Below, in pieces: positions 2,554-34,319 of a DNA stretch of 64,000 bases. The translations under genes were made by a program, and so were the position numbers. Source of the stretch: Bradymonadia bacterium (GTDB taxonomy: Bacteria; Myxococcota_A; Bradymonadia; UBA7976; UBA1532); the NCBI GenBank assembly GCA_046290225.1, contig JBKAGE010000034.1:343598-407597 (forward strand), given 5' to 3'. The stretch's first letter is position 1. Each line of letters starts with the position of its first letter. The notes below the pieces were generated by a model. It was not told the origin of the DNA. It ran no database searches and saw only the letters and a program-made list of their open reading frames with translations.

Positions 2554-4103
2554 AGAAGAAGACGCTCACGGGACGCATCAGCGGCTTCTTCCGCCGCGCA
2601 CCACAAGGTGAGGAGGAGCCGCCCTCCGAGCCCGCACCGAACGATGAGCCTCTGCCTCCGGCCACGGAGGGCGTCAACCTGCTCCTCATCAGTGATCTGC
2701 ACCTCGGGGAGGCGTGCAAGGATCACAGCCGAATCGAATATCTGAAGCGCAGCGCCACCCTCGACGAGGACCTCTGTCGGTTCCTCGAGCACCACACCCA
2801 CAATCGTCTCGACGGGCGGCCGTGGCGTCTGGTCCTCGCAGGTGATCTGCTCGACTTCCTGCAGGTGACCATCGTGCCCACCGGCGCCTCTGATGAGGCC
2901 AGACGATTTGGTCTGGGCACGACGGAGGAAGAGTCCGCCTGGAAGCTCTCCAGGCTGATGGAGCGTCACCGCCGTGCCTTTGTCTATCTCGCTGGCTTCG
3001 TCGGCGCCGGGCACCAGCTCGACATCATCCAGGGCAACCATGACGAAGAGCTGTTCTGGCCCAAAGTGCAGGAGACCCTCGTGGCGGGGCTCAAGCAGAT
3101 CTACTTCGGCGGCGAGGACACCGCGGAGGTCACCCCCGAGGATTTCGAATCTCGAGTGCGGTTTCATCCGTGGTGCTTGCACATTCCCGGCGTGCTCTAT
3201 GTCGAGCATGGCCATCGATATGATCCGTACTGCGCCACGCCCCCACAGCTCTGCCCCTTGCGTCCCGGTGACGAGCGCGAGCTGACCCAACCGCTCAGCG
3301 GACTGGCCATTCGTTACTTCGCCAACCTGGAGCGGGGGTTCCAGACCCACGACAAGGAGCACTGGGGCCTGAGAGAGTACAGCGCCTACTATCGCTCTCG
3401 GGGCTGGGGCCACCTGATCGACGTATGGCATCGCTATGTGCACTTCCTGAAGCAGGCCCATCAGTACTATCGGGATCATGGCAGCCTCAGCAGCGAAGCG
3501 GCACACGCGCAACATCAGGCCGCCCTCGTAGAGGTGGCCGAGGCAGAGCAGATCACCCTCGCTGATCTTCAGGCCCTCGACACCCTCGGCGCCCCCTCGG
3601 TGACCAGTGACGCCTTCGGGTTGTACGCCGGGGTGGGCATGGCCGAGTGGACCGCCATCTCCGGCGCGCTGTTCGTGGCTCTGCTGATGTTGCTGACCCC
3701 CTGGTCCTGGTGGGTCGAGTTGGGCCTCATCGGCGCAGGCATCTTTGCTGGGGTGCGCTGGGTCCGATACGCACGAGGGCGGTTCCCCCTCGCTGCCCCC
3801 ATCTACCTCAGCGATGCAGCGGAGCAGATCGGCGCCCGGTTGAAAGTCCCGGTCGTAGCCATGGGCCACACCCACAAACCCCTGCGACGACGCCAGGCCT
3901 TCGATCACCGGGCCTTCTACGTGAACACGGGCTCGTTCCTGGCGCCTCATGGACCGCACCACGGCCCCACTGAGCCCTGCACTTGTAGAACCACCTTCGT
4001 GGTGATCCCTCATGCGGGGGCGCATGACCGGCCCTCACCCAAACTGTATCGCTGGTGTGTGGTGAATCAGAAGCCTGCGCCCTTCAAGGTCAAGCGCGGC
4101 TGA
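2550..4103 (+). CDS. calcineurin-like metallophosphoesterase with C-terminal transmembrane segments
   Basis: phosphoesterase motifs LLISDLHLGE, LAGDLLDF, IQGNHDEE, GHTHKP; two hydrophobic helices near aa 390-430; GTG start overlapping the upstream stop. Confidence 0.65.
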   Translation: MKKKTLTGRISGFFRRAPQGEEEPPSEPAPNDEPLPPATEGVNLLLISDLHLGEACKDHSRIEYLKRSATLDEDLCRFLEHHTHNRLDGRPWRLVLAGDLLDFLQVTIVPTGASDEARRFGLGTTEEESAWKLSRLMERHRRAFVYLAGFVGAGHQLDIIQGNHDEELFWPKVQETLVAGLKQIYFGGEDTAEVTPEDFESRVRFHPWCLHIPGVLYVEHGHRYDPYCATPPQLCPLRPGDERELTQPLSGLAIRYFANLERGFQTHDKEHWGLREYSAYYRSRGWGHLIDVWHRYVHFLKQAHQYYRDHGSLSSEAAHAQHQAALVEVAEAEQITLADLQALDTLGAPSVTSDAFGLYAGVGMAEWTAISGALFVALLMLLTPWSWWVELGLIGAGIFAGVRWVRYARGRFPLAAPIYLSDAAEQIGARLKVPVVAMGHTHKPLRRRQAFDHRAFYVNTGSFLAPHGPHHGPTEPCTCRTTFVVIPHAGAHDRPSPKLYRWCVVNQKPAPFKVKRG

Positions 4104-4118
4104 GACTGGCCTGAGCGG

Positions 4119-4697
4119 TCACGCCTCGAAGGCCGCCCTGAGCACCCCGTCGAGTCGGCTCACGGCCTCTCTCGCCGTCTCCTTGCGCCCCATGGTCATG
4201 GGGATGCCGGCCCCAACTCGATGGGTGACGCCGGTGACCAGCGGGCCAGGACCACGACGCAGGCTGCGCCTCACGGGTACGATGGGCACATCGCACTTGA
4301 ACGCCACCTGCACCAGCCCCTCGCCCTCACCGAGTTGAGCCAGCACAGCGTGCCCGGCCATCAGCCGACGACGGATCACATAGTGGGAAGCAGGCAGCAC
4401 CCCGAGGGCGCCGAGGTGCGGGTTGAGCGCCGGCCATCGCAGCCAGCGCTCGTCGAGCACGAGGCGTGGCCAGGGTCGGCCCGCCCGGCGCAGGGCCGAG
4501 GCCATCGCCAGGGCATCGAGGGGGCTCGTCCCTGCAGGCAGGACCCAGAGGGCCCCCGCTGAGGGCCAGCGCTCAGGCCACTCCACACGATGGCGGCTCG
4601 CTCGGAGGGCGCCGGAGAGCAAGGGGCTCAGGCGATCGAGGGCGCTGGGGTCAAAAGCGTCAGGGGCGTCTGGGGGAAACAGTTCGGCAGTCTTCAT
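4119..4697 (-). CDS. hypothetical protein
   Basis: ORF starting at internal Met (MKTAELF...) 20 nt downstream of the kinase gene stop; no motif recognised. Confidence 0.4.
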   Translation of the reverse strand: MKTAELFPPDAPDAFDPSALDRLSPLLSGALRASRHRVEWPERWPSAGALWVLPAGTSPLDALAMASALRRAGRPWPRLVLDERWLRWPALNPHLGALGVLPASHYVIRRRLMAGHAVLAQLGEGEGLVQVAFKCDVPIVPVRRSLRRGPGPLVTGVTHRVGAGIPMTMGRKETAREAVSRLDGVLRAAFEA

Positions 4698-4716
4698 GGC
4701 CCGGGTGGGATGCAGT

Positions 4717-5898
4717 TCAGTTGTGTCCGGTCGCAGCGTCGGGATCGAGAAAACGACCCGTGGCCTCATTGGACTCGTGCACGCCGGTGTCTTCATCGTG
4801 CACGTGGGTCTCGTTCGTGTGGGCTGCTCTTTCGAGCGACGCGAGCGTCTCGAGACCTGGCAGAGGGCCGGTCATGTCCACGAGGCGGGTGTAATTCACC
4901 CTCAGGCCTGTGGGCGTGTCGTCATCTGAGGGGCCCACGAGATCGAACTCTTGATAGCGCTCGTCGTGCTCCATGCGCTCACGGGCGAAAATACGGCTGA
5001 GCGTACGCCCCAGGTCGAGGGGCTTGAAGCGCGGGAACCGATCCCGCCGGTAGACCTCGAGCTCGTCTGCGAAAGCCTCGGCAGTGGCGTATCGTGCCTC
5101 TGCATCCTTCGCCAGAGCCCTGGCGAGGATGCGCTCGAGGGTGGCATCGAGGCCAGGGAGATCGGCGACGCCGGGGTGAGGCTGATGGCGAATCGCCTCC
5201 ATGACCTCGACGTCTTCAGATCCCTTGAAGGGGGTCTCGCCCGTGAGGGTTTCGAAGAGCACGGCCCCTGCTGCGAAGACATCGGAGCGCCGGTCGAGCC
5301 GTCGCCCCATGGTCTGCTCCGGGCTCATGTAGCGCACCTTGCCCTTGATGACCCCCACCCGGGTCTTCACCCGGTTGAGGCGCCCCTTGGCGATGCCGAA
5401 GTCGATGAGCTTCACCTCGCCGCGGTAGCTGACCATGATGTTCGACGGGCTGAAGTCGCGGTGCACGATGTCGAGGGGCTCACCGGTGAGGTCGACCTGC
5501 TCGTGGGCACAATGCAAGCCCCTCAGCGCCTGTTCCACCGCCCACAAGCCGTACTCCACGGGCCAGGGCATCTCCCGAGCCCGGCAGCGACGCAGCGCAG
5601 ATCGTAGATCTACCCCTTCGACGTACTCCATCACCAGGAAGTACTCGTCTTCGAGGTGGCTGAACTCGTACGTGCGGGTGATGTTGGGGTGATCGAAGAG
5701 GCACGTGATCTTGGCCTCGTCAATGAGCATGTCGATGAACTCTTGATCGGCGGTGTAGAACGACAGCAACCGCTTGATGGCCACAGCCTCGAGCTCACCG
5801 TCGGCGTCGCGCCGGGCGGCACGATAGATCTCCGCCATTCCCCCAGAGGAGATCCGGTAGAGCAAACGATAGGGTCCAAGTGATCGAGCGCGGCGCAC
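4717..5898 (-). CDS. serine/threonine protein kinase
   Basis: Hanks kinase motifs: GxGxxAxIY glycine loop (SSGGMAEIYRA), AIKRL, HRDFSPSNIMV, DFGIAKG, SPE. Confidence 0.85.
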   Translation of the reverse strand: MRRARSLGPYRLLYRISSGGMAEIYRAARRDADGELEAVAIKRLLSFYTADQEFIDMLIDEAKITCLFDHPNITRTYEFSHLEDEYFLVMEYVEGVDLRSALRRCRAREMPWPVEYGLWAVEQALRGLHCAHEQVDLTGEPLDIVHRDFSPSNIMVSYRGEVKLIDFGIAKGRLNRVKTRVGVIKGKVRYMSPEQTMGRRLDRRSDVFAAGAVLFETLTGETPFKGSEDVEVMEAIRHQPHPGVADLPGLDATLERILARALAKDAEARYATAEAFADELEVYRRDRFPRFKPLDLGRTLSRIFARERMEHDERYQEFDLVGPSDDDTPTGLRVNYTRLVDMTGPLPGLETLASLERAAHTNETHVHDEDTGVHESNEATGRFLDPDAATGHN

Positions 5899-6065
5899 GA
5901 GGGAAGGCTAGCTTGCCCGGCCCGCAGTTGCAATCCACCATACCCGGTGATAAGAGCTGCTCAGGGCAGCGCCTGGGCTGATGGTGCCGCGCATAAAGCC
6001 GCTCTCAGGGGTGTTTGACGAGATCGAGCCCCCACCATCACCGCGCTGACGAAGAGGAGATCACC

Positions 6066-13597: not shown

Positions 13598-13645
13598 GCT
13601 GACCAGGCCATCGAGCAGCAGAAACATCGAGTAGAAAGAGAGGAC

Positions 13646-15430
13646 ATGCCCAGTCTGGTGCAACACGGCCGCAGCGCCCCCTCCCCGTTGGTGAGGCGGC
13701 TGACCTCCATTGGCTCTGATCCCGAGAACGACATCGTCGTCGATGCAGACGGCGTACTCAGCACCCACGCTCACGTGAAGCTCGAGAGCGGCCGCTTCCT
13801 GCTGGTGGCTCTGCATCGCAGCGCCCCGGTGATGGTGAATGGTCGCAAGATCAAGAAGCACGTGCTCGAGCATGGTGACGAGATCGCCATCGGCGCCGCG
13901 GGTCTGCGTTTCAACCTCTGGGACGAGCCCGGGACGCAGGAGCGGGATCAGGACGAGGGCCCCGGCGGAGACGTCATGGGGGCCTACAAACGGCTGGTGA
14001 TGTTCTCCACCACACTGGCCGAGCGCCTCGACGTGCCCACTCTGCTCGAAGCCCTCATGGACGAGATCATCGCCCTCACCGGGGCCGACAAGGGCTTCTT
14101 GCTGCTCATGGAAGAGGCACCGAAGGTGGTGACCGCCCGCAACCTCAAGCGGGAGAACGTCGCCGCCACCCTCAACCAGCTCTCGGACAGCATCATCAGG
14201 CGGGTCATCGAGGGTCGACAGCCCATCATCGTGAGCGATGCCCTCCACGACACCGAGTTCAAGAGCAGCGTCTCCGTGGTGCAGCTCAGGCTGTGCTCCG
14301 TGATGTGCGTGCCTCTGGTGTTCAGAGGTCAACTGCTCGGACTCATCTACGTGGGCAACGACAATGTGGTGAATCTATTCGACGAGCACTCTCTCGAGCA
14401 GCTCACGGTCTTCGCCACGCAGGCTGCGCTCCTGCTCGATCACGCCATTCAGCGCGACGCCCTTCAGCGGGACAACAAGGCGCTGCGCACAGCGCTCGAG
14501 GGCAGCCGCTTCGGATCCATCATCGGCGCCTGTGATCCGATGCGCGGTGTGTTCCGCACCTTGGAGAAGGTCGCAGTCACTGACATCAACGTGCTCGTGC
14601 TCGGTGAAACAGGCACCGGTAAAGAGCTCATCGCCCGGGAGCTGCACCGTCGCTCCGCCCGCAAGGATGGCCCTTTCGTGGCAGTGAACTGCGGAGCGCT
14701 GCCTGCGGATCTCATGGAATCCGAGCTCTTCGGCCACCGCCGCGGGGCCTTCACCGGCGCAGTGGAGGACAAAAAGGGCCGATTCCAGGCGGCACACAAG
14801 GGCACACTGTTCCTCGACGAGATCGGCGAGATGCCTGCAGCGTTGCAGGTGAAGTTGCTCCGAGCGATCCAGGATCGGACGGTGACCCGAGTGGGCGACA
14901 ACCGCCCTCAGCCGGTGGACATCCGCCTGGTGGCGGCGACCCACGTCGACCTGCAGGAGGCGATCAGAGAAGGTCGGTTCCGCGAGGATCTCTACTACCG
15001 CCTGAACGTGGTGAGCATCACGCTCCCGGCCCTGCGGGAGCGTGACGAAGATGTGGTGCTCATCGCCCGCTACCTGTTGGAGCGGTACGCCAAGGAATAC
15101 GATCGCAAGCTCAAGGGCTTCACCTCCGATGCCCTCATCGCCATGCGCAAGCACGCCTGGCCCGGCAACATCCGGGAGTTGGAGAACCGCCTGAAGAAGG
15201 CGGTGGTCCTCGCCGAGGGCACTCAGCTGGGCCCAGATGATCTCGATTTGGGCGAAGAGGCCCTTGCAGATCGCATCCTGCCCCTCGCTGAAGCCAAAGA
15301 GGCGTTTCAGCGCCGCTACATCGACCAGGTGCTGGCCCTGAACAACCACAACCGCACCAAGACCGCCCGCGATCTGGGCGTCGATCCCCGGACCATCTTC
15401 CGCCACCTGGAGAAGACCCGCGGCGAGTGA
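13646..15430 (+). CDS. sigma54-dependent transcriptional activator with N-terminal FHA domain, GAF domain, AAA+ domain and C-terminal HTH
   Basis: FHA-like N-terminus (RLTSIGSDPENDIVVD...HAHVKLESGRF); Walker A GETGTGKE; GAFTGA signature (HRRGAFTGA); Fis-type HTH at the C-terminus. Confidence 0.9.
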   Translation: MPSLVQHGRSAPSPLVRRLTSIGSDPENDIVVDADGVLSTHAHVKLESGRFLLVALHRSAPVMVNGRKIKKHVLEHGDEIAIGAAGLRFNLWDEPGTQERDQDEGPGGDVMGAYKRLVMFSTTLAERLDVPTLLEALMDEIIALTGADKGFLLLMEEAPKVVTARNLKRENVAATLNQLSDSIIRRVIEGRQPIIVSDALHDTEFKSSVSVVQLRLCSVMCVPLVFRGQLLGLIYVGNDNVVNLFDEHSLEQLTVFATQAALLLDHAIQRDALQRDNKALRTALEGSRFGSIIGACDPMRGVFRTLEKVAVTDINVLVLGETGTGKELIARELHRRSARKDGPFVAVNCGALPADLMESELFGHRRGAFTGAVEDKKGRFQAAHKGTLFLDEIGEMPAALQVKLLRAIQDRTVTRVGDNRPQPVDIRLVAATHVDLQEAIREGRFREDLYYRLNVVSITLPALRERDEDVVLIARYLLERYAKEYDRKLKGFTSDALIAMRKHAWPGNIRELENRLKKAVVLAEGTQLGPDDLDLGEEALADRILPLAEAKEAFQRRYIDQVLALNNHNRTKTARDLGVDPRTIFRHLEKTRGE

Positions 15431-27643: not shown

Positions 27644-27789
27644 ACCTCGACACAGTCGATGCTGTGAACCGCCGTTGACGCCCCGTCGAATCCCGCCTGA
27701 AAACTGGCCTTTTCAGATCTGGCACGGCCCCTGCTTTATCCCCTGGCGTCCGCAATCGAGACCCACACTGAGACGGGAGAGCACCTCAC

Positions 27790-29373
27790 ATGGCCCACGC
27801 GACACTCAAAGCCCTCATGCCTCTGGCCCTCGCCACCCTCACTGCCTGTGGCGCAATGGATGATGATGCCTACGACAGCGGGGATCAGGGCGGGGCCTAC
27901 TATCCCCCGGCACCGAACAACGGCTATGTCCCGCCGCAAGAGACCCCGCCCAGCGGGGATCCTCAGTCCGGGGAGCAATATGAGCACTACGGCCACAACC
28001 CCTTCGTGGACGCTGAAGAGGACAACCTCGCCACCTTCGCCATCGACGTGGACACTGCGAGCTACACGCTCACCCGCAGGAACATCAACAATGGCTGGCT
28101 GCCGGATCCTGCTTCGATCCGTGTGGAAGAGTTCATCAACTACTTCAAGTACGCCGACGAGGGCCCTGCCCCCTCCGACGCTCGCCCCTTCGCCATTCAC
28201 ATGGAGGTGGCGCCCTCGTTGTTCGGTGACAGCGCTGGCGGCCAGGCCGCGGACGATGTGGAGCGCTCGCTGATGCGGGTGAACATTCGCGGCATCGATC
28301 TCGAAAACGAAGAGCGCAAGTCCGCGAACCTCGTGTTCCTGCTCGACGTCTCCGGCTCCATGTCCAGCCCCGACAAGCTGGGTCTCGTGCAGTACAGTAT
28401 GCGACGTCTCACGGAGACATTGCGCCCCGACGACACCATCAGCATCGTGGTCTATGCGGGCGCCGACGGCGTGGTGCTCCCCCCCACCCCGGTCTCCAAC
28501 GCTGGCCGCATCATCGATGCTGTCGAGAGCCTGCGACCTGGTGGCGGGACCAACGGCGAGGCGGGCATTCGCACGGCCTACCGCCTCGCTCAGGAAGCCT
28601 ACAAGAACGACGGCATCAACCGGGTGATCCTGTGTACCGACGGCGACTTCAACGTGGGCCTCACCGGCGACGCCCTGGTGGGGCTCATCGAGGAGAAGCG
28701 CGACGAGGGTGTCACCCTCACGGTCCTCGGCTTCGGCAGCGGGAACTACAACGATCGCACGATGGAGCAGCTGGCCAACAAGGGGAACGGCAACTACGCG
28801 TACATCGACCAGATCGCCGAAGCGGAGCGGGTGCTCGTCGAAGGCATCACCGGCACACTGCAGGTCATCGCCAAGGACGTGAAGATCCAGGTGGAGCTGA
28901 ACAGCGACGCTGTGGCCCGATACCGGCTCATCGGGTACGAAAACCGCGACATCGCCGACGACCAGTTCCGCGACGACGCGGTGGACGCTGGGGAGATCGG
29001 CGCCGGCCACCAGGTGACGGCCTACCTCGAGCTGGAGCTACAGCCCAATGTGCGGGCCGACGCCACCCTCGACCTGGCCACGGTCCGGGTGCGCTACAAG
29101 GCCCCTGATGCCACGGCGGACGACGCCGCCCTCGAGGAGGTGGCCCGTACGCTGGAGATGGGGGCCCATCGACGGGACTTCGAGGACGCCAGCGACGACT
29201 TCCAGTTCGGCGCAGCCGTAGTGGAGTTCGCCGAGGTCCTCCGGGAGAGCCCGCACAGCGTCGGTCGCCGCCTCGGTGAGCTTCAGAGCGTAGCCCGCCG
29301 CGCTGCCGGCGACGACGCACGACGCGCCGAGTTCATCGAGCTCGTAGAGCGTGCCGCCACCCTCACCCGCTGA
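27790..29373 (+). CDS. von Willebrand factor A domain lipoprotein (YfbK-like, vWA plus DUF3520-type C-terminus)
   Basis: lipobox LALATLTACG; MIDAS motif LLDVSGSMS; conserved N-terminal FAIDVDTASYT and C-terminal VRVRYKAP.. regions. Confidence 0.8.
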   Translation: MAHATLKALMPLALATLTACGAMDDDAYDSGDQGGAYYPPAPNNGYVPPQETPPSGDPQSGEQYEHYGHNPFVDAEEDNLATFAIDVDTASYTLTRRNINNGWLPDPASIRVEEFINYFKYADEGPAPSDARPFAIHMEVAPSLFGDSAGGQAADDVERSLMRVNIRGIDLENEERKSANLVFLLDVSGSMSSPDKLGLVQYSMRRLTETLRPDDTISIVVYAGADGVVLPPTPVSNAGRIIDAVESLRPGGGTNGEAGIRTAYRLAQEAYKNDGINRVILCTDGDFNVGLTGDALVGLIEEKRDEGVTLTVLGFGSGNYNDRTMEQLANKGNGNYAYIDQIAEAERVLVEGITGTLQVIAKDVKIQVELNSDAVARYRLIGYENRDIADDQFRDDAVDAGEIGAGHQVTAYLELELQPNVRADATLDLATVRVRYKAPDATADDAALEEVARTLEMGAHRRDFEDASDDFQFGAAVVEFAEVLRESPHSVGRRLGELQSVARRAAGDDARRAEFIELVERAATLTR

Positions 29374-30796: not shown

Positions 30797-30971
30797 GTCC
30801 GGCTCTGCAGGCGGAGCGCCCCAGCATATCCATTCAGATAAACCAACGCGCTAAACCAATCACACCAACATAACCAACTTGAATACGCTTCTCATCCCCA
30901 GCCATCAAACACGCAACAAAGCAATTACATAACAAGCACTTGCACTAAAACAACCTCATCCCCCGGAAAAA

Positions 30972-30988
30972 CTGGCACGCCCCCTGCT
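30972..30988 (+). promoter_or_regulatory. putative sigma54 (-24/-12) promoter: CTGGCACGccccCTGCT
   Basis: matches YTGGCACG-N4-TTGCW with correct spacing and one mismatch (CTGC for TTGC); located about 45 nt upstream of the first tRNA-like gene. Confidence 0.45.
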
Positions 30989-31034
30989 CTAGCCTCAGAG
31001 CGCCGACAGAGAGGCACCTGCTCAGCGCAGACAA

Positions 31035-31151
31035 CGAGGCGTAGCTCAGCCAGGGAGAGCGCCCGCTGTTGAAAAATGGTGTCCGACTGTCTCGACGTCT
31101 TACTTCGCTTTGGGGGCGGGAGGTCGCAGGTTCGAATCCTGCCGTCTCGCA
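31035..31151 (+). ncRNA. tRNA-like RNA (tRNA-Pro-derived) with a ~43-nt insertion at the 5' side of the anticodon loop; candidate Y-RNA-like tRNA mimic
   Basis: 7-bp acceptor CGAGGCG/CGTCTCG, D arm GCTCAGCCAGGGAGAGC, T arm GCAGGTTCGAATCCTGC, anticodon stem CCCGC/GCGGG flanking the insert, then a TTTGGGG loop identical to the tRNA-Pro(UGG) loop. Confidence 0.6.
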
Positions 31152-31223
31152 GTGTGCGCTGAGCAGGTGTCTCTCTGTTGGCCATTGGAGAAACCGGAAG
31201 AAGTTGCTGTTCGGCCCATGCAT

Positions 31224-31332
31224 CGAGGTGTAGCTCAGTCTGGTAGAGCGCTTGATGATGATGTCCGACTGCCTTGATGTCTTACTTCGCTTTGGGTGCG
31301 AGAGGTCGCAGGTTCGAATCCTGCCACCTCGA
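31224..31332 (+). ncRNA. tRNA-like RNA with a ~38-nt insertion in the anticodon arm (same conserved motif); candidate Y-RNA-like tRNA mimic
   Basis: acceptor CGAGGTG/CACCTCG (perfect), D arm GCTCAGTCTGGTAGAGC, T arm GCAGGTTCGAATCCTGC; insert contains GTCCGACTG...TGTCTTACTTCGC followed by TTTGGGT. Confidence 0.6.
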
Positions 31333-31382
31333 TGGATGCGCCGAGCAGGATCTTCCTTCGGGTCGTGGGGCTGCGCCTCTTC

Positions 31383-31489
31383 GGGGGTGTAGCTCAGTGG
31401 TGAGAGCGCTATTACAGATTTCCGACTGTCTGGATGTCTTACTTCGACTGTCAATCGAGAGGTCGTGGGTTCGAATCCCACCGCCCCCG
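31383..31489 (+). ncRNA. tRNA-like RNA with a ~40-nt insertion in the anticodon arm (same conserved motif); candidate Y-RNA-like tRNA mimic
   Basis: acceptor GGGGGTG/CGCCCCC (one GU pair), D arm GCTCAGTGGTGAGAGC, T arm GTGGGTTCGAATCCCAC; insert TTCCGACTGTCTGGATGTCTTACTTCGACTG. Confidence 0.55.
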
Positions 31490-31553
31490 CTCAGCGCAGC
31501 CCCACGACATTTTCGTACGACGCAGTGACTCGAGATCGATGCGCCGTGCTCAT

Positions 31554-31627
31554 CGGAGTGTAGCTCAGCCTGGGAGAGCCGACGGTTTGGGGCCGTAAGG
31601 TCGCAGGTTCAAATCCTGCCACTCCGA
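31554..31627 (+). tRNA. tRNA-Pro (anticodon UGG)
   Basis: 74-nt cloverleaf: acceptor CGGAGTG/CACTCCG, D arm GCTCAGCCTGGGAGAGC, anticodon loop TTTGGGG, T arm GCAGGTTCAAATCCTGC; no encoded CCA. Confidence 0.8.
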
Positions 31628-31733
31628 CAGTGTTTTTCAGATCCTGCCCTTCGGGCGCCCCTCCGCTCCTACGGCTTCGCCTCCGTCGGCTGCGGGGCGT
31701 CCGGCCGCAGGCCGGACAGGATCGCGAGTGTTT
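31628..31733 (+). repeat. structured ~100-bp repeat unit A (multi-hairpin, UUCG tetraloop, GUCCGGCC-GCAG-GCCGGAC hairpin)
   Basis: three near-identical copies in the window (also 31726-31830 and 32061-32165); outer stem GATCCTG/CAGGATC. Confidence 0.75.
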
Positions 31734-31830
31734 TTAGGATCTTGCCCTTCGGGCGCCCCTCCGCTCATACGGCTTCGCCTCCGTCGGTTACGGGGCGTCC
31801 GGGCACAGGCCGGACAAGATCGCGAGCTCA
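31726..31830 (+). repeat. structured ~100-bp repeat unit B (tandem to unit A)
   Basis: about 90% identical to unit A; same hairpin layout. Confidence 0.75.
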
Positions 31831-31860
31831 CGCTCGCTGGTTCAGCCAAGGCGTTTTGAC

Positions 31861-31975
31861 TGCGCCGTGATGGTTCGGGTGAGCTCATCCACTCAGGCTT
31901 CCGACTGACTGGGTGTCTTACTTCGACTGAAACTCCAAGAATGTGGGTGGGCTCTCTCGAGCCATCACGGCGCTG
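31861..31975 (+). ncRNA. stand-alone copy of the conserved CCGACTG-N6-TGTCTTACTTCGACTG motif enclosed by a perfect 12-bp terminal stem (GCGCCGTGATGG/CCATCACGGCGC); candidate small structured RNA
   Basis: direct sequence observation; same motif as in the three tRNA-like insertions. Confidence 0.45.
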
Positions 31976-31986
31976 TCAATACTCAT

Positions 31987-32060
31987 CGGGGTGTAGCTCA
32001 GCCTGGAAGAGCGCACGGTTCGGGTCCGTGAGGCCGCAGGTTCAAATCCTGCCACCCCGA
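31987..32060 (+). tRNA. tRNA-Pro (anticodon CGG)
   Basis: 74-nt cloverleaf: acceptor CGGGGTG/CACCCCG, anticodon stem CACGG/CCGTG, loop TTCGGGT, T arm GCAGGTTCAAATCCTGC. Confidence 0.85.
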
Positions 32061-32165
32061 CAGTGTTTTTCAGATCCTGCCCTTCGGGCGCCCCTCCGCT
32101 CCTGCGGCTTTGCCTCCGTCGGCTACGGGGCGTCCGGCCACAGGCCGGACAGGATCGCAGGCTTC
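32061..32165 (+). repeat. structured ~100-bp repeat unit C (third copy, again directly 3' of a tRNA-Pro)
   Basis: about 92% identical to unit A. Confidence 0.75.
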
Positions 32166-32217
32166 GCCTGCTGCCCATTTCCGCGTGCTGTGGTGACAAC
32201 GGCACTCCACCTGACCA

Positions 32218-32340
32218 CAGATGACTGTTGGTTTGGGTGCATCAACCCGACCAGGAGTCGGCACTTTGTGTGTCAACTCTTAGATGTCCAACTGACCGGG
32301 TGTCTTACTTCGACTGATGCATTCAAACGAGCAGTCATCT
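32218..32340 (+). ncRNA. second stand-alone copy of the conserved motif (GTCCAACTGACCGGGTGTCTTACTTCGACTG) enclosed by a 9-bp terminal stem (AGATGACTG/CAGTCATCT); candidate small structured RNA immediately upstream of rsr
   Basis: direct sequence observation; internal hairpin TTGGGTGCATCAACCCGA. Confidence 0.45.
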
Positions 32341-32360
32341 GTATCGGGTGCATTTGACTC

Positions 32361-34169
32361 GTGACTGAGCGGAATACACCCGCTCGACTGGAGGATGACA
32401 TGACTCGCGTGTTGAAGACTCAGAACATGAAGCAGTGGCTGACCCAGGGCTGGATCAGCACCTACGAGGGCGCGCCTGCCTACGACTACAGCGACACGCA
32501 CCCGCTCATCCACTTGGTGTTCACCATGGGCTCGGCCCTGTTCACCGACGGCTTCTATGAGACTGAGCAGGCCCAGGTCCGCACCTTCGCACAGTCCCTG
32601 CTCCGGGCGGCCCAGGTCGACCCCAAGTTTCCCTGGCAGTACGCCGCGTGGATGCGTGACCCCAAGCGCGGCAAGGGCAACCGGATCCAGGGCTCCCTGG
32701 CGCCGGCGCTGCTCGACGCCCTGTTGCCCAAGGATCTGCGAGACGAGGCAATCGTCGCCCAGTACACCGCCCTGGCTCTGAGCCATCGGCCCGATGACGT
32801 CACCGCATGCCTGACGCACTACGAGCGGCTTGGCCTCGGCCGCCCCTCAAAGGCGGTGCGGCAGGGCATGGCGCTGGCTCTGACGAAGTTCGACGAGTAC
32901 CAGCTGCTCAAGTACACCGGCAGCCGCCAGAAGGTACGCCTGTGCGATGTGATCTTGATGGTGCGCGAAGAGCTCGAGGCCCTCAGTGATGGTGGCGCTC
33001 TGGCGCTGGCTGTCGGTCGGTACCTGCACGCCCCCACACGATCACGGAAGGATCACCCCTCCCTCGATCGCATGCACCTGACCCGAGCGCGCCGCGCGCT
33101 CTGGGCGATGCCGCCCTCTGGGGCGCTGTCGCCGGAGCTTCCGCTGCAGCTCGAGGCCTCACGGGTGACCTGGGAGCAGGTGCTCAGCCACTTCGGTGCG
33201 GGCAATGATCCGAGCGTGAAGCGCCGCCGTAAGGCAGTGTGGTCGGCGCTGCTCTCCGTGCGCGGGCTGGTACCCGACACTGCTTTGCTGCGCAACGTGC
33301 GCAACATGGTGGAGGCGGGTGTCTCTGCGGATCAACTCACCGAGGTGGTCTCTCAGCGCCGGTTCGACAAGGTCTGGCCGCACCAGGTCTACGCGGGCTA
33401 CAAGGCCGCGCCTCAGCTCGGCGCCCACTTCGAGGCGATCTTCAGCCGCACCCTCGATCGGCTCCCCCTCGGGCGCCATCTGGGCATCGCTGACGCCTCG
33501 GGCTCGATGATGGTGAAGGTGGGTGGCTCGAAGGGCTCGCTCAACGCCATGGATGTGGCGCTGTGCTTCACTGCCATCATGAGCGAGAGCTCCGGCCTCG
33601 GCGCCTCGTTCTCTGATGGCCAGTTCGCGCAGTGGTCTGGCGGCAAGTGCCTCTCGATCGCTGCCCGTGGGCAGCACGAGGGCGCCCTGAAGTTCGCTCA
33701 GAACCCGGCCCTGCGCCGAGGTATGGGCGGCACTCAGGTCTTCGGTGCCGTGATGGAGCTGATCAAGTGGCTGGTGGACCACCCAGAGGTGACCCCGCCG
33801 GACTGCTTGTGGTTCTTCTCTGATATGCAGTTCCACCCGGCGGCGGGCGCGCTCAAGAGCCAGCCCAACGTCATCACGGAGCTGTCGAAGATCCACGGCG
33901 TGTCACTGCAAGGCCCGCCCCTCGAGGCGGCCCTGAAGCTCTACCGGAAGGCCATCGGTCCGGTGGACGTGGTGCTCTGGAATCTGGCTGCCTATGCGCC
34001 TGTGCCGGTGCCCGCGGACATGGAAGGTGTGCTCTTGGTGAGCGGCTTCGACACCAACACTTTCGACACCGTCAGCCGCTGGCGACAAGGGCTGCCGATG
34101 TCCGGTGAGGGTGCGCCGTCGGTGGAGGAGAGCCAGGAGATCGTTCTGGATAAGATCCGCGCGTTCTGA
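32361..34169 (+). CDS. rsr: Ro60-like ribonucleoprotein (TROVE domain plus C-terminal vWA domain with MIDAS), Rsr homologue
   Basis: TROVE-like N-terminal block LIHLVFTMGSALFTDGFYETEQ (compare Ro60 LCFGSEGGTYYIKEQ); C-terminal vWA with MIDAS LGIADASGSM; size and architecture fit Ro60/Rsr. Confidence 0.7.
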   Translation: MTERNTPARLEDDMTRVLKTQNMKQWLTQGWISTYEGAPAYDYSDTHPLIHLVFTMGSALFTDGFYETEQAQVRTFAQSLLRAAQVDPKFPWQYAAWMRDPKRGKGNRIQGSLAPALLDALLPKDLRDEAIVAQYTALALSHRPDDVTACLTHYERLGLGRPSKAVRQGMALALTKFDEYQLLKYTGSRQKVRLCDVILMVREELEALSDGGALALAVGRYLHAPTRSRKDHPSLDRMHLTRARRALWAMPPSGALSPELPLQLEASRVTWEQVLSHFGAGNDPSVKRRRKAVWSALLSVRGLVPDTALLRNVRNMVEAGVSADQLTEVVSQRRFDKVWPHQVYAGYKAAPQLGAHFEAIFSRTLDRLPLGRHLGIADASGSMMVKVGGSKGSLNAMDVALCFTAIMSESSGLGASFSDGQFAQWSGGKCLSIAARGQHEGALKFAQNPALRRGMGGTQVFGAVMELIKWLVDHPEVTPPDCLWFFSDMQFHPAAGALKSQPNVITELSKIHGVSLQGPPLEAALKLYRKAIGPVDVVLWNLAAYAPVPVPADMEGVLLVSGFDTNTFDTVSRWRQGLPMSGEGAPSVEESQEIVLDKIRAF

Positions 34170-34319
34170 TCGCACAGTCTGATCTCACAGTACGCTCCTG
34201 GTCACGTGACGGCCACATCGCCCATCGAAGCGGTGTGGCCGTTCTCTTTTCGAAAAATGTGCCGTGAGACATGACCAAACCACGCAACCCTTCGCTTCGT
34301 TCCGGGCCGTATCCTGTGA

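Follow-up and report, generated by a model that had tools for sequence, protein, structure and literature searches.

Does a gene for a Ro60-like protein that is preceded by tRNA-like RNAs with enlarged anticodon arms belong to a ribonucleoprotein of the Ro60/Y-RNA type, and what would the tRNA shape bring to such a particle? The question is raised by a 64,000-nucleotide (nt) stretch of DNA from a Bradymonadia bacterium (contig JBKAGE010000034.1; the whole stretch is referred to as the window), in which a gene for a TROVE plus von Willebrand factor A (vWA) protein follows an array of structured RNAs on the same strand (Table 1). Ro60 and Y RNAs are conserved from bacteria to humans, and the role of the variable part of the RNA is largely open. 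In our reading the locus is probably a sigma-54-driven operon for a Ro60/Y-RNA-type ribonucleoprotein, which combines a new protein clade with a new RNA family. Sequence comparison shows that the layout of the unit is conserved among relatives, and that a short RNA module covaries, is linked exclusively to the Ro60-fold gene in the sequences examined and is grafted into both tRNA and rRNA-like scaffolds.

The protein and the RNAs of the array

The open reading frame 32361-34169 opens at a GTG and gives the 602 amino acids (aa) stated in an earlier note on this DNA, which was made from its letters alone; a Shine-Dalgarno sequence and the identical protein P0001 (589 aa) of a Bradymonadia metagenome-assembled genome (MAG) favour the ATG at 32400. 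Pfam TROVE matches at 28.5 bits over residues 269-318 only, DUF7788 stays just under threshold, NCBIfam gives no match, and a single-sequence search of Protein Data Bank (PDB) sequences retrieves no Ro60. The AlphaFold2 model, built from an alignment of 43 homologues (A2; predicted local distance difference test score 89.7), matches Ro60 structures over its full length in Foldseek (E 1e-12 to 3e-13, template modelling scores 0.65/0.72, 15-17% identity), and the family profile retrieves Thermus phage phiRo60 (2e-22), human Ro60 (7e-13) and Xenopus Ro60 (7e-11). PHROG 850, 'RNA-binding protein', is matched at 4e-31, and the closest proteins of cultured phages are 'Ro-like RNA binding proteins' of 24-32% identity.

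The order of domains is that of the Ro60/TROVE superfamily, with a HEAT-repeat TROVE ring followed by a vWA domain that carries a metal ion-dependent adhesion site (MIDAS), whose residues D365-x-S367-G-S369, T445 and D475 are invariant in A2. A generic vWA protein, which the earlier note had named as the outcome that would overturn its assignment, is thus not what fold and profile comparison return. Neither a full-length Pfam TROVE match nor grouping with Rsr is found, and among 1.84 billion cluster representatives 28 match at E<=1e-30, followed by a drop to ~126 bits; the 4050 found at 1e-3 represent the general superfamily. The protein is therefore a genuine TROVE plus vWA protein with the predicted DASGSM motif, from a small discrete clade that is not Rsr proper, and the label 'rsr' that it had been given overstates the relationship.

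Upstream of the gene, within 1.4 kb and on the + strand, as expected from the proximity of Y RNAs to Ro60 genes, lie five RNAs with a common motif, TCCGACTG-N7-GTCTTACTTCG. Three are tRNA-like; the other two, which account for the two further motif copies foreseen in stem-closed units, are long hairpins without a tRNA body. The Rfam tRNA model (RF00005, gathering score 29) gives five matches in the array, namely two ordinary tRNA-Pro genes, as anticipated, and the three long tRNA-likes (31035-31150, 31224-31332 and 31383-31489; 107-117 nt; 47-52 bits, E 2e-8 to 6e-7), whose long anticodon-arm insertion had also been read correctly. The matches span model positions 1-71, the cloverleaf retains the D- and T-loop nucleotides that are conserved in tRNAs, and the Rfam alignment shows an insertion of 44-48 nt in the anticodon arm. 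The uninterrupted 5-bp anticodon stem with its 7-nt loop is not present as such, a 35-48-nt module branching from the 5' strand of the stem, and ARAGORN does not call the three RNAs as they stand.

The position of the module differs from that first proposed, in which it replaced the anticodon loop. It branches off the 5' strand of the anticodon stem as an additional arm that lies between this stem and the D arm. In most of 17 tRNA-likes, the UUCGN at its 3' end makes 4-5 of the 5 possible pairs with the 3' strand of the anticodon stem; UUCGN may instead share this strand with 2-3 upstream nucleotides, and the 7-nt loop is kept either way. Because this loop remains after the module has paired, the tRNA-likes are complete cloverleafs with an additional arm, the clearest example being tRNA-like 3, with the anticodon arm UUCGA-CUGUCAA-UCGAG and a GUC loop; the minimum-free-energy fold of RNA 3 also includes the module helix.

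Table 1. Features of the locus in window coordinates, in order along the DNA
Feature	Position	Strand	Basis
Sigma-54-type -24/-12 promoter element CTGGCACGCCCCCTGCT (TGGCAC-N5-CTGC)	30972..30988	+	Sequence reading; conservation in relatives
RNA 1: tRNA-like 1 (31035-31151), Pro(UGG)-like body, within a 28-bp flanking duplex (31002-31029 with 31155-31182)	31002..31182	+	Rfam tRNA 47.3 bits; fold z-score -8.1; inverted repeat by blastn
Module copy 1 (UGGUGUCC-GAC-UGU-CU-CGACGUCU-UACUUCG)	31072..31109	+	Model R1, 44.8 bits
RNA 2: tRNA-like 2 (31224-31332), Pro(UGG)-like, acceptor stem lengthened by ~16 pairs (31207-31223 with 31333-31348)	31207..31348	+	Rfam tRNA 51.6 bits; flanking-duplex fold z -2.8
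Module copy 2	31254..31291	+	R1, 43.3 bits
RNA 3: tRNA-like 3 (31383-31489) within a 15-bp duplex (31362-31376 with 31494-31508)	31362..31508	+	Rfam tRNA 52.5 bits; fold z-score -5.1
Module copy 3	31411..31448	+	R1, 50.9 bits
Ordinary tRNA-Pro(UGG)	31554..31628	+	ARAGORN; Rfam 55.7 bits
Tandem ~100-nt structured repeat, two copies	31628-31730, 31727-31826	+	Predicted 4-way junction
RNA 4: long hairpin with module copy 4, then an anticodon-arm-like hairpin (UUCGA-CUGAAAC-UCCAA)	31857..31978	+	z -8.1
Module copy 4	31890..31927	+	R1, 43.9 bits
Ordinary tRNA-Pro(CGG)	31987..32061	+	ARAGORN; Rfam 65 bits
Third ~100-nt structured repeat copy	32061..32158	+	
RNA 5: long multibranched hairpin with module copy 5, ending ~55 nt before the start codon	32217..32342	+	z -6.9
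Module copy 5	32277..32314	+	R1, 41.0 bits
Ro60-like TROVE plus vWA protein gene, 589 aa from ATG 32400, MIDAS DASGSM	32400..34169	+	Pfam, fold, profile
Intrinsic terminator closing the transcription unit (14-bp stem and U-rich tail)	34208-34243	+	Strong

The RNA module and its permuted forms

The module is an 8-bp helix flanked by RAC and CY at one end and by UACUUCG at the other. In an alignment of 23 copies from the window and related loci (A3) it takes the form of a 7-8-bp helix, frequently with a central G-G mismatch, a loop GAC-N3-4-CU and the 3' tail UACUUCG; 91% of the cells are paired, five of seven pairs have changes on both sides (matched by 0 of 500 shuffles), and shifted pairing registers fall to 26-60% pairing. 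When 28 copies are placed in a common register, permuted ones (see below) included, all eight pairs have both-side changes and the covariation score is 0.63 vs 0.23 in shuffled alignments (0/500), a result that is inflated because the a-strands of the permuted copies were picked partly on their ability to pair. Fixed length and flanks together with a free helix sequence are as expected of a protein-binding site. A reading of UACUUCG as a UUCG tetraloop or a T-loop was also considered and, on inspection, fits most copies poorly.

A covariance model of the module (R1) finds exactly five copies in the 64-kb window, every one in the array, and recovers copies outside its training set in related loci (L026/27, L029/30 and L039-45; 29-56 bits). 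Rfam scans at gathering score and at E<=10 return only tRNA for this region of the window, leaving the module without a match. In a scan of a metagenome collection with a 20-base motif, three stretches were found, one of them the L003 contig, and all three adjoin a homologue of the Ro-like gene; a composite motif search, with one likely false match in ~0.9 Mb, places the motif next to the gene in the loci it covered. Exclusive linkage of the module to this gene family holds across the loci and collections examined.

A profile scan of a genome collection with the Ro-like protein family yielded 24 loci. In those from Bradymonadales and other Myxococcota MAGs, 1-4 long module-bearing tRNA-likes lie just upstream of the gene on its strand, so that the expected recurrence in related genomes is borne out, and the closest relative (L029, 68% identity) keeps the order of the window, with a YfbK-type vWA gene, PfkB, GH32, the RNAs and the gene, and has two module tRNA-likes. 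Apart from the Chloroflexota, where the motif is adjacent on the opposite strand, the RNAs are co-oriented with the gene in all related loci examined. Clustering of the open reading frames (ORFs) of 26 loci gives no other conserved protein gene, and no rtcB, rtcR, nuclease or enhancer-binding protein gene.

MAGs of Bradymonadia and other Myxococcota have the hairpin form of the module, inside tRNA-likes. In Myxococcus, Corallococcus and Pyxidicoccus (alignment A4) and in Melainabacteria, the same parts stand immediately 5' of the gene in circularly permuted order, CU-GGCRCCCC-UACUUCG...hairpin...GGGGYGCC-GAC: the flanks CU, UACUUCG and GAC surround an 8-bp helix that is open at the side where the window module has its loop and closed at the other. 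The Myxococcus-type leaders have a U-run after GAC, and the Myxococcus and Melainabacteria forms lack any tRNA part. The permuted form appears to be a terminal stem, with a predicted topology like that of Y RNAs. In Chloroflexota the motif reads CC-GUUACUCC-UACUUCU...GGAGUGAC-AAC and lies just upstream of the gene, and a viral metagenome contig has an AT-rich hairpin copy, AGGGAAUA-GAC...CU-UAUUCUCU-UACUUCA, with 8/8 pairs, in a tRNA-like RNA. Rfam scans (gathering score or E<=10) find nothing in the permuted elements.

We note that the Chloroflexota motif is on the minus strand at ~4890-4945 in L033, ~3990-4045 in L022 and ~5835-5885 in L023, and that in L033-35 it is situated between the Ro-like gene and a divergent operon (LRV/HEAT-repeat protein, MoxR-like AAA_5 ATPase, DUF2201). 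The loci of Melainabacteria type have a conserved stretch, AGUGGUUCAGUAAG, upstream of the permuted element (L018 ~5800-5830, L036 ~4805-4830).

The leader position of the permuted element allows another explanation, that the module is an autoregulatory operator in the mRNA leader of the Ro-like gene, or a site for a processing RNase, and not the core of a stable trans-acting ribonucleoprotein. The Myxococcus/Melainabacteria element ends 20-60 nt before the start codon, its GC-rich helix with the U-run resembles an attenuator, window RNA 5 also ends close to the ATG, and the elements are co-oriented and apparently co-transcribed with the gene. An operator in the leader is at odds with the strand of the Chloroflexota motif, with a tRNA-like in L009 (7725-7832) that lies downstream of the gene and has a divergent module copy (R1, 16.6 bits), and with the presence of up to five copies, as far as 1.3 kb upstream, in complete and selectively maintained tRNA folds with flanking stems. 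We consider such a cis-acting role rather unlikely.

The permuted forms also bear on the alternative given by the earlier note, in which tRNA-Pro paralogues were inactivated by a small mobile insertion and decay as pseudogenes beside the gene by chance. In its favour, the insert varies in its 5' part but not at its 3' end, is found in more than one tRNA species, and is accompanied by short target repeats at some junctions (CGCU in tRNA-like 1; CGUAAC in helix 69 of the L020 gene described below). Dispersal like that of a miniature inverted-repeat transposable element is not seen, with no copies elsewhere in the 64 kb and all metagenome matches next to the gene; the module helix covaries; purifying selection on the tRNA bodies is strong (no substitutions in ~102 nt among the tRNA-likes of L004, L005 and L045, whose genes differ by 4-5%); and permuted forms are not obtainable by simple insertion. 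A mobile element is therefore very improbable, being largely refuted by covariation, gene linkage, body conservation and the permuted forms, and we reject it.

Anticodon-like loops, transcription and the proposed particle

Across loci, the anticodon-like loops correspond to Pro, Asp, Asn, Gly, Glu, Arg, Leu, Gln, Thr and Ala, sometimes on one body. The sharpest comparison comes from a trio of loci with 95.4-96.4% identical genes (L004 5790-5896, L005 2542-2647 and L045 2824-2929), whose ~106-nt tRNA-likes differ only by one linker indel and by a 4-nt block, ACGG, GUCA or GUUA, comprising the anticodon and position 37; L045 turned a pair into this trio, and two further sets of contigs with identical proteins also had identical RNAs and are uninformative on anticodon variation. 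In this trio the tRNA-like body is strongly constrained, and the anticodon block changes faster than the gene. To our knowledge, neither a full tRNA cloverleaf with an extra anticodon-stem arm nor a block-wise change of the anticodon among near-identical strains has been described in bacteria.

Are these RNAs working tRNAs that carry a removable or tolerated insertion, for example a protein-assisted intron-like element or a regulated 'handle', with the Ro-like protein as a chaperone or cofactor of their maturation or use? Deletion of the module in silico restores canonical tRNAs to ARAGORN, RNAs 1 and 2 being called as Pro(UGG), RNA 3 as Asp(GUC), and those of other loci as Gly, Glu, Arg, Leu, Gln, Thr, Ala and Asn; the 3' end of the module supplies the 5' strand of the anticodon stem, with the 7-nt loop kept. 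In some cases body and anticodon are consistent with each other: tRNA-likes 1 and 2 look like the nearby tRNA-Pro(UGG) gene, and the tRNA-like of L001 is presumably similar to E. coli tRNA-Gly(UCC) and that of L003b to tRNA-Glu(UUC). However, the first two duplicate the anticodon of the ordinary tRNA-Pro(UGG) in the same array, one body bears different anticodons in close relatives, and RNAs 4 and 5, as well as the Myxococcus type, carry the module without a tRNA body. Nor do the features of a tRNA intron emerge, since Rfam scans return no group I or other intron family for the 35-48-nt insert and no endonuclease or ligase gene is linked; a bulge-helix-bulge was not formally searched for. Functional tRNAs of this kind are, in our judgement, distinctly unlikely.

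The module is not confined to tRNA scaffolds. In L020 (MAG Deltaproteobacteria bacterium NP119, PCBK01000136.1) a full-length 23S-like gene (2741-5935) ends 66 nt before the Ro-like gene; its module lies within an insertion of 41 nt at the 5' side of the loop of helix 69. The gene is 68% identical to E. coli 23S rRNA, has several expansion segments and, at 2188 bits, keeps the overall fold. Universally conserved positions of the peptidyl-transferase centre are changed (A2058-A2062 region, A2451C/C2452A, U2584 and A2602), as is the sarcin-ricin loop (G2655A, G2661A), and because of such alterations the gene cannot encode a working 23S rRNA; no 16S or 5S gene is present in the fetched locus. It looks like a maintained, catalytically dead rRNA paralogue.

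The changing loops and the dead 23S copy invite the view that the Ro-like protein acts together with its RNAs as a bait or sensor in conflict. The tRNA mimics, and in one lineage the 23S mimic, would display a fast-diversifying loop beside the docked protein and pose as targets for toxins that attack RNA, anticodon nucleases for example; the protein would sense, protect or dispose of the damaged decoy, and the anticodon would track toxin specificity. This would fit the near-identical tRNA-likes of the trio with their differing blocks, the great diversity of the loops across loci, and the constant placement of the module beside a 7-nt loop, including that of helix 69 in a gene with mutated catalytic nucleotides; the sigma-54 RNA-repair operon of Salmonella, which reacts to damaged tRNA, includes rsr-yrlBA (PMC7790460). 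Several points oppose it. PADLOC returns no defence-family match for the protein, and the ORF clustering gives no nuclease, ligase or toxin gene conserved nearby. The chromosomal neighbourhood is syntenic and of housekeeping-like character. Some loops, in L029, are missing U33 or a purine at position 37, the Myxococcus and Melainabacteria forms are devoid of a tRNA portion, and hypervariability is known from a single trio of loci. We regard a bait or sensor as unlikely; if true, it would detect or absorb attacks by toxins that target RNA in a sequence-specific manner, or would capture complementary RNAs, and such a principle would be new to Ro-type particles.

With respect to transcription, the -24/-12 element announced at 30972-30988 is present. 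It fits TGGCAC-N5-YTGC with GG-N10-GC spacing and has one mismatch to the consensus TGGCAC-N5-TTGC. The window contains two matches to the sigma-54 pattern vs 0.48 expected, and at least two are reached in 9 of 100 shuffles; because the pattern is thus not exceptional statistically within the window alone, the promoter call rests on conservation across loci. In the window, L002-L011, L029, L039 and L045, the first tRNA-like RNA is preceded at 28-77 nt by a TGGCAC-N5-NNGC element, giving a sigma-54-type promoter of conserved position in at least 12 related loci, and expression would depend on sigma-54. A reading of the element as a degenerate permuted module (CU-GGC...GCUCU / AGAGCGCC-GAC) was dropped, the promoter position being kept in many loci. 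All elements of the array are co-oriented with the gene and apparently co-transcribed; between promoter and gene, the sole terminator-like site is a weak 5-bp stem inside RNA 5 (32247-32261).

From these parts we propose the following course of events. One transcript would start just past 30988 and end at the terminator at 34243, carrying the five module RNAs, the two tRNA-Pro, the three structured repeats and the mRNA of the Ro60-fold protein. Probably the duplexes that enclose RNAs 1-3, like the long stems of RNAs 4 and 5, serve as double-stranded processing or stabilising stems similar to those that flank rRNAs, and would allow the RNAs to be excised. The module RNAs are putative ligands of the Ro-like protein, as exclusive co-occurrence, covariation and circular permutation suggest, with the module most likely its docking site. 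Because the module is grafted onto the anticodon stem, on its 5' strand, of cloverleafs that are otherwise complete, the particle would present a tRNA body and an anticodon-like loop beside the protein. If YrlA and Yrn1 are a guide, the tRNA-shaped part may recruit tRNA-handling factors or imitate their substrate. As its output, the particle might survey or repair RNA, or take part in conflicts with toxins that target RNA.

Several points weigh against a Ro60/Y-RNA-type operon, besides the pairing-based choice of permuted strands mentioned above. The RNAs match neither the Y_RNA (RF00019) nor the YrlA covariance model, the check suggested earlier giving a best YrlA score of 16.8 bits vs a gathering score of 69 (E 3.1), and the protein is only distantly related to the proven Y RNA-binding proteins. 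The module helix is missing from the minimum-free-energy folds predicted for tRNA-likes 1 and 2 from their single sequences. The Myxococcus/Melainabacteria element, terminator-like and in the immediate leader of the gene, would fit a purely cis-regulatory role. No cognate sigma-54 activator is adjacent: the sole enhancer-binding protein found in the window by a GAFTGA scan (FHA-GAF-AAA+-HTH_8, 13598-15430) is 17 kb from the array, and no such gene is found within 6 kb of the Ro-like gene in other loci. The proposal of permuted Y-RNA-like ligands accordingly keeps its topological part, in that the tRNA ends are the RNA ends, the module is internal and a terminal stem appears in other phyla; it loses the match to known Y RNA families, and binding stays putative.

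If a Ro60/Y-RNA-type operon is nevertheless the correct reading, one docking module is found in three settings, a terminal stem, complete tRNAs and a 23S-like RNA, so that the target of the protein would be separable from the cargo of the RNA and the question of the effector becomes testable. The locus would add an RNA family absent from Rfam and a discrete Ro60-fold clade in four phyla, some of whose carriers are culturable myxobacteria, and a tRNA with an extra arm and a block-changing anticodon could link RNA surveillance to translation or toxin defence. Literature searches returned no description of this clade, motif or armed tRNAs; their coverage is incomplete and a prior description is possible.

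A few observations concern the surroundings. The long inverted repeats around each of the three tRNA-likes resemble rRNA processing stems, with a shorter equivalent in L029, where a third tRNA-like (5875-5975) has an acceptor stem and T arm, unrelated sequence in the D/anticodon region and no module. The ~100-nt repeat, whose three copies follow the tRNA-Pro genes, is predicted to form a 4-way junction with a 7-bp closing stem; it lacks the module and is not found in the rest of the window or in any fetched locus. A GC-rich hairpin with a module-like loop, GACCCGAC, and no UACUUCG tail lies between tRNA-like and gene in L004 (~5920-5950), with equivalents in L005/L045. In L021 (5953-7687) the Ro-like gene is split into several frames (pseudogene or assembly errors) and the upstream module tRNA-like is intact. 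A second, near-identical sigma-54-type element, TGGCACGGCCCCTGC, at 27720-27734 is ~56 nt 5' of the YfbK-type vWA gene (27790-29373), which may be co-regulated with the Ro-like gene, since the two are also syntenic in L029. Finally, a phage-type integrase gene directly downstream of the Ro-like gene in L044 (4750-5901), one of three otherwise identical loci, suggests an integration hotspot beside the tRNA-like array.

Comparison with known systems

Like the intron-containing and permuted tRNA genes of archaea and algae, the tRNA-likes are interrupted near the anticodon arm and involve a circular permutation. Here, however, no bulge-helix-bulge is evident, no splicing endonuclease or ligase gene is linked, the module and not the tRNA is permuted, and the host is bacterial. 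Transfer-messenger RNA (tmRNA) and other tRNA mimics similarly join an acceptor and T-arm body to an extra functional domain; tmRNA has no anticodon arm and carries an mRNA-like domain, whereas the RNAs of the array combine a whole cloverleaf with a ~35-48-nt hairpin of protein-binding type.

Among Ro60 systems, phiRo60 of Thermus phage phiLo (PMC12135203; PDB 9kop, 9l5y) is the closest solved relative by sequence, on the profile value given above, with Foldseek identities of the Ro-like protein to TROVE/Ro60 structures of only ~15-17%. The RNA ligands of phiRo60, Yrl1 and Yrl2, are encoded directly upstream of its gene and have been shown to bind (PMC12135203); unlike the RNAs described here, they are simple stem-bulge-stem RNAs with a CGAA motif and without a tRNA scaffold. 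The Rsr-Yrn1-PNPase particle of Deinococcus radiodurans (RYPER) and metazoan Ro60-Y RNA share the Ro60 fold and the combination of a conserved protein-binding helix with a variable effector part, module binding being putative in the present case. In the Myxococcus and Melainabacteria loci the module would be, as in these RNAs, a terminal 5'/3' stem followed by a U-run. The sequences differ, with GGUCCGA, its bulged C and UUGAC in those RNAs as opposed to RAC, CY and UACUUCG with a free helix sequence here, and there is no sign of a partner corresponding to the polynucleotide phosphorylase (PNPase) of RYPER.

Rsr with the Y RNAs YrlA and YrlB is known from Salmonella Typhimurium and Mycobacterium smegmatis (Chen et al. 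2014, PMC4201824; Rfam RF02553), and a tRNA-like effector or mimic domain has been proposed for YrlA (PMC4201824). In the window a tRNA-like domain is present in RNAs 1-3 and absent from RNAs 4 and 5, and the paired 5'/3' ends that bear the Ro motif in Y RNAs are not found, the module being internal with its motif (U/G)CCGAC partly paired; in the Myxococcus/Melainabacteria relatives the module helix is at the outer end of the conserved element, the RNA ends being predicted. The resemblance of (G)UCCGAC to GGUCCGA, GNCGAA and CGAA, the motifs contacted by Ro60 (PMC4201824, PMC12135203), is a lead only, as the structural context differs and the Chloroflexota copies lack CGA.

YrlA ends in the Ro-binding stem and has a loop-closed acceptor stem, whereas the RNAs of the window end at the acceptor stem, contain the module internally and keep the anticodon stem-loop. 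Rsr-YrlA also differs in the clade of the protein and in its covariance model, which the present RNAs do not match, and, unlike in Salmonella, no rtcBA or rtcR is nearby. In common, a TROVE plus vWA ring protein is encoded beside, and on the same strand as, small RNAs with a D arm, a T arm and an acceptor stem; the Salmonella operon likewise has a sigma-54 promoter; and a short CGA-containing motif is located at a helix end, GNCGAA in YrlA and CCGAC here. By analogy, the system would work like a Ro60/Y-RNA particle, with Rsr-YrlA as its closest counterpart.

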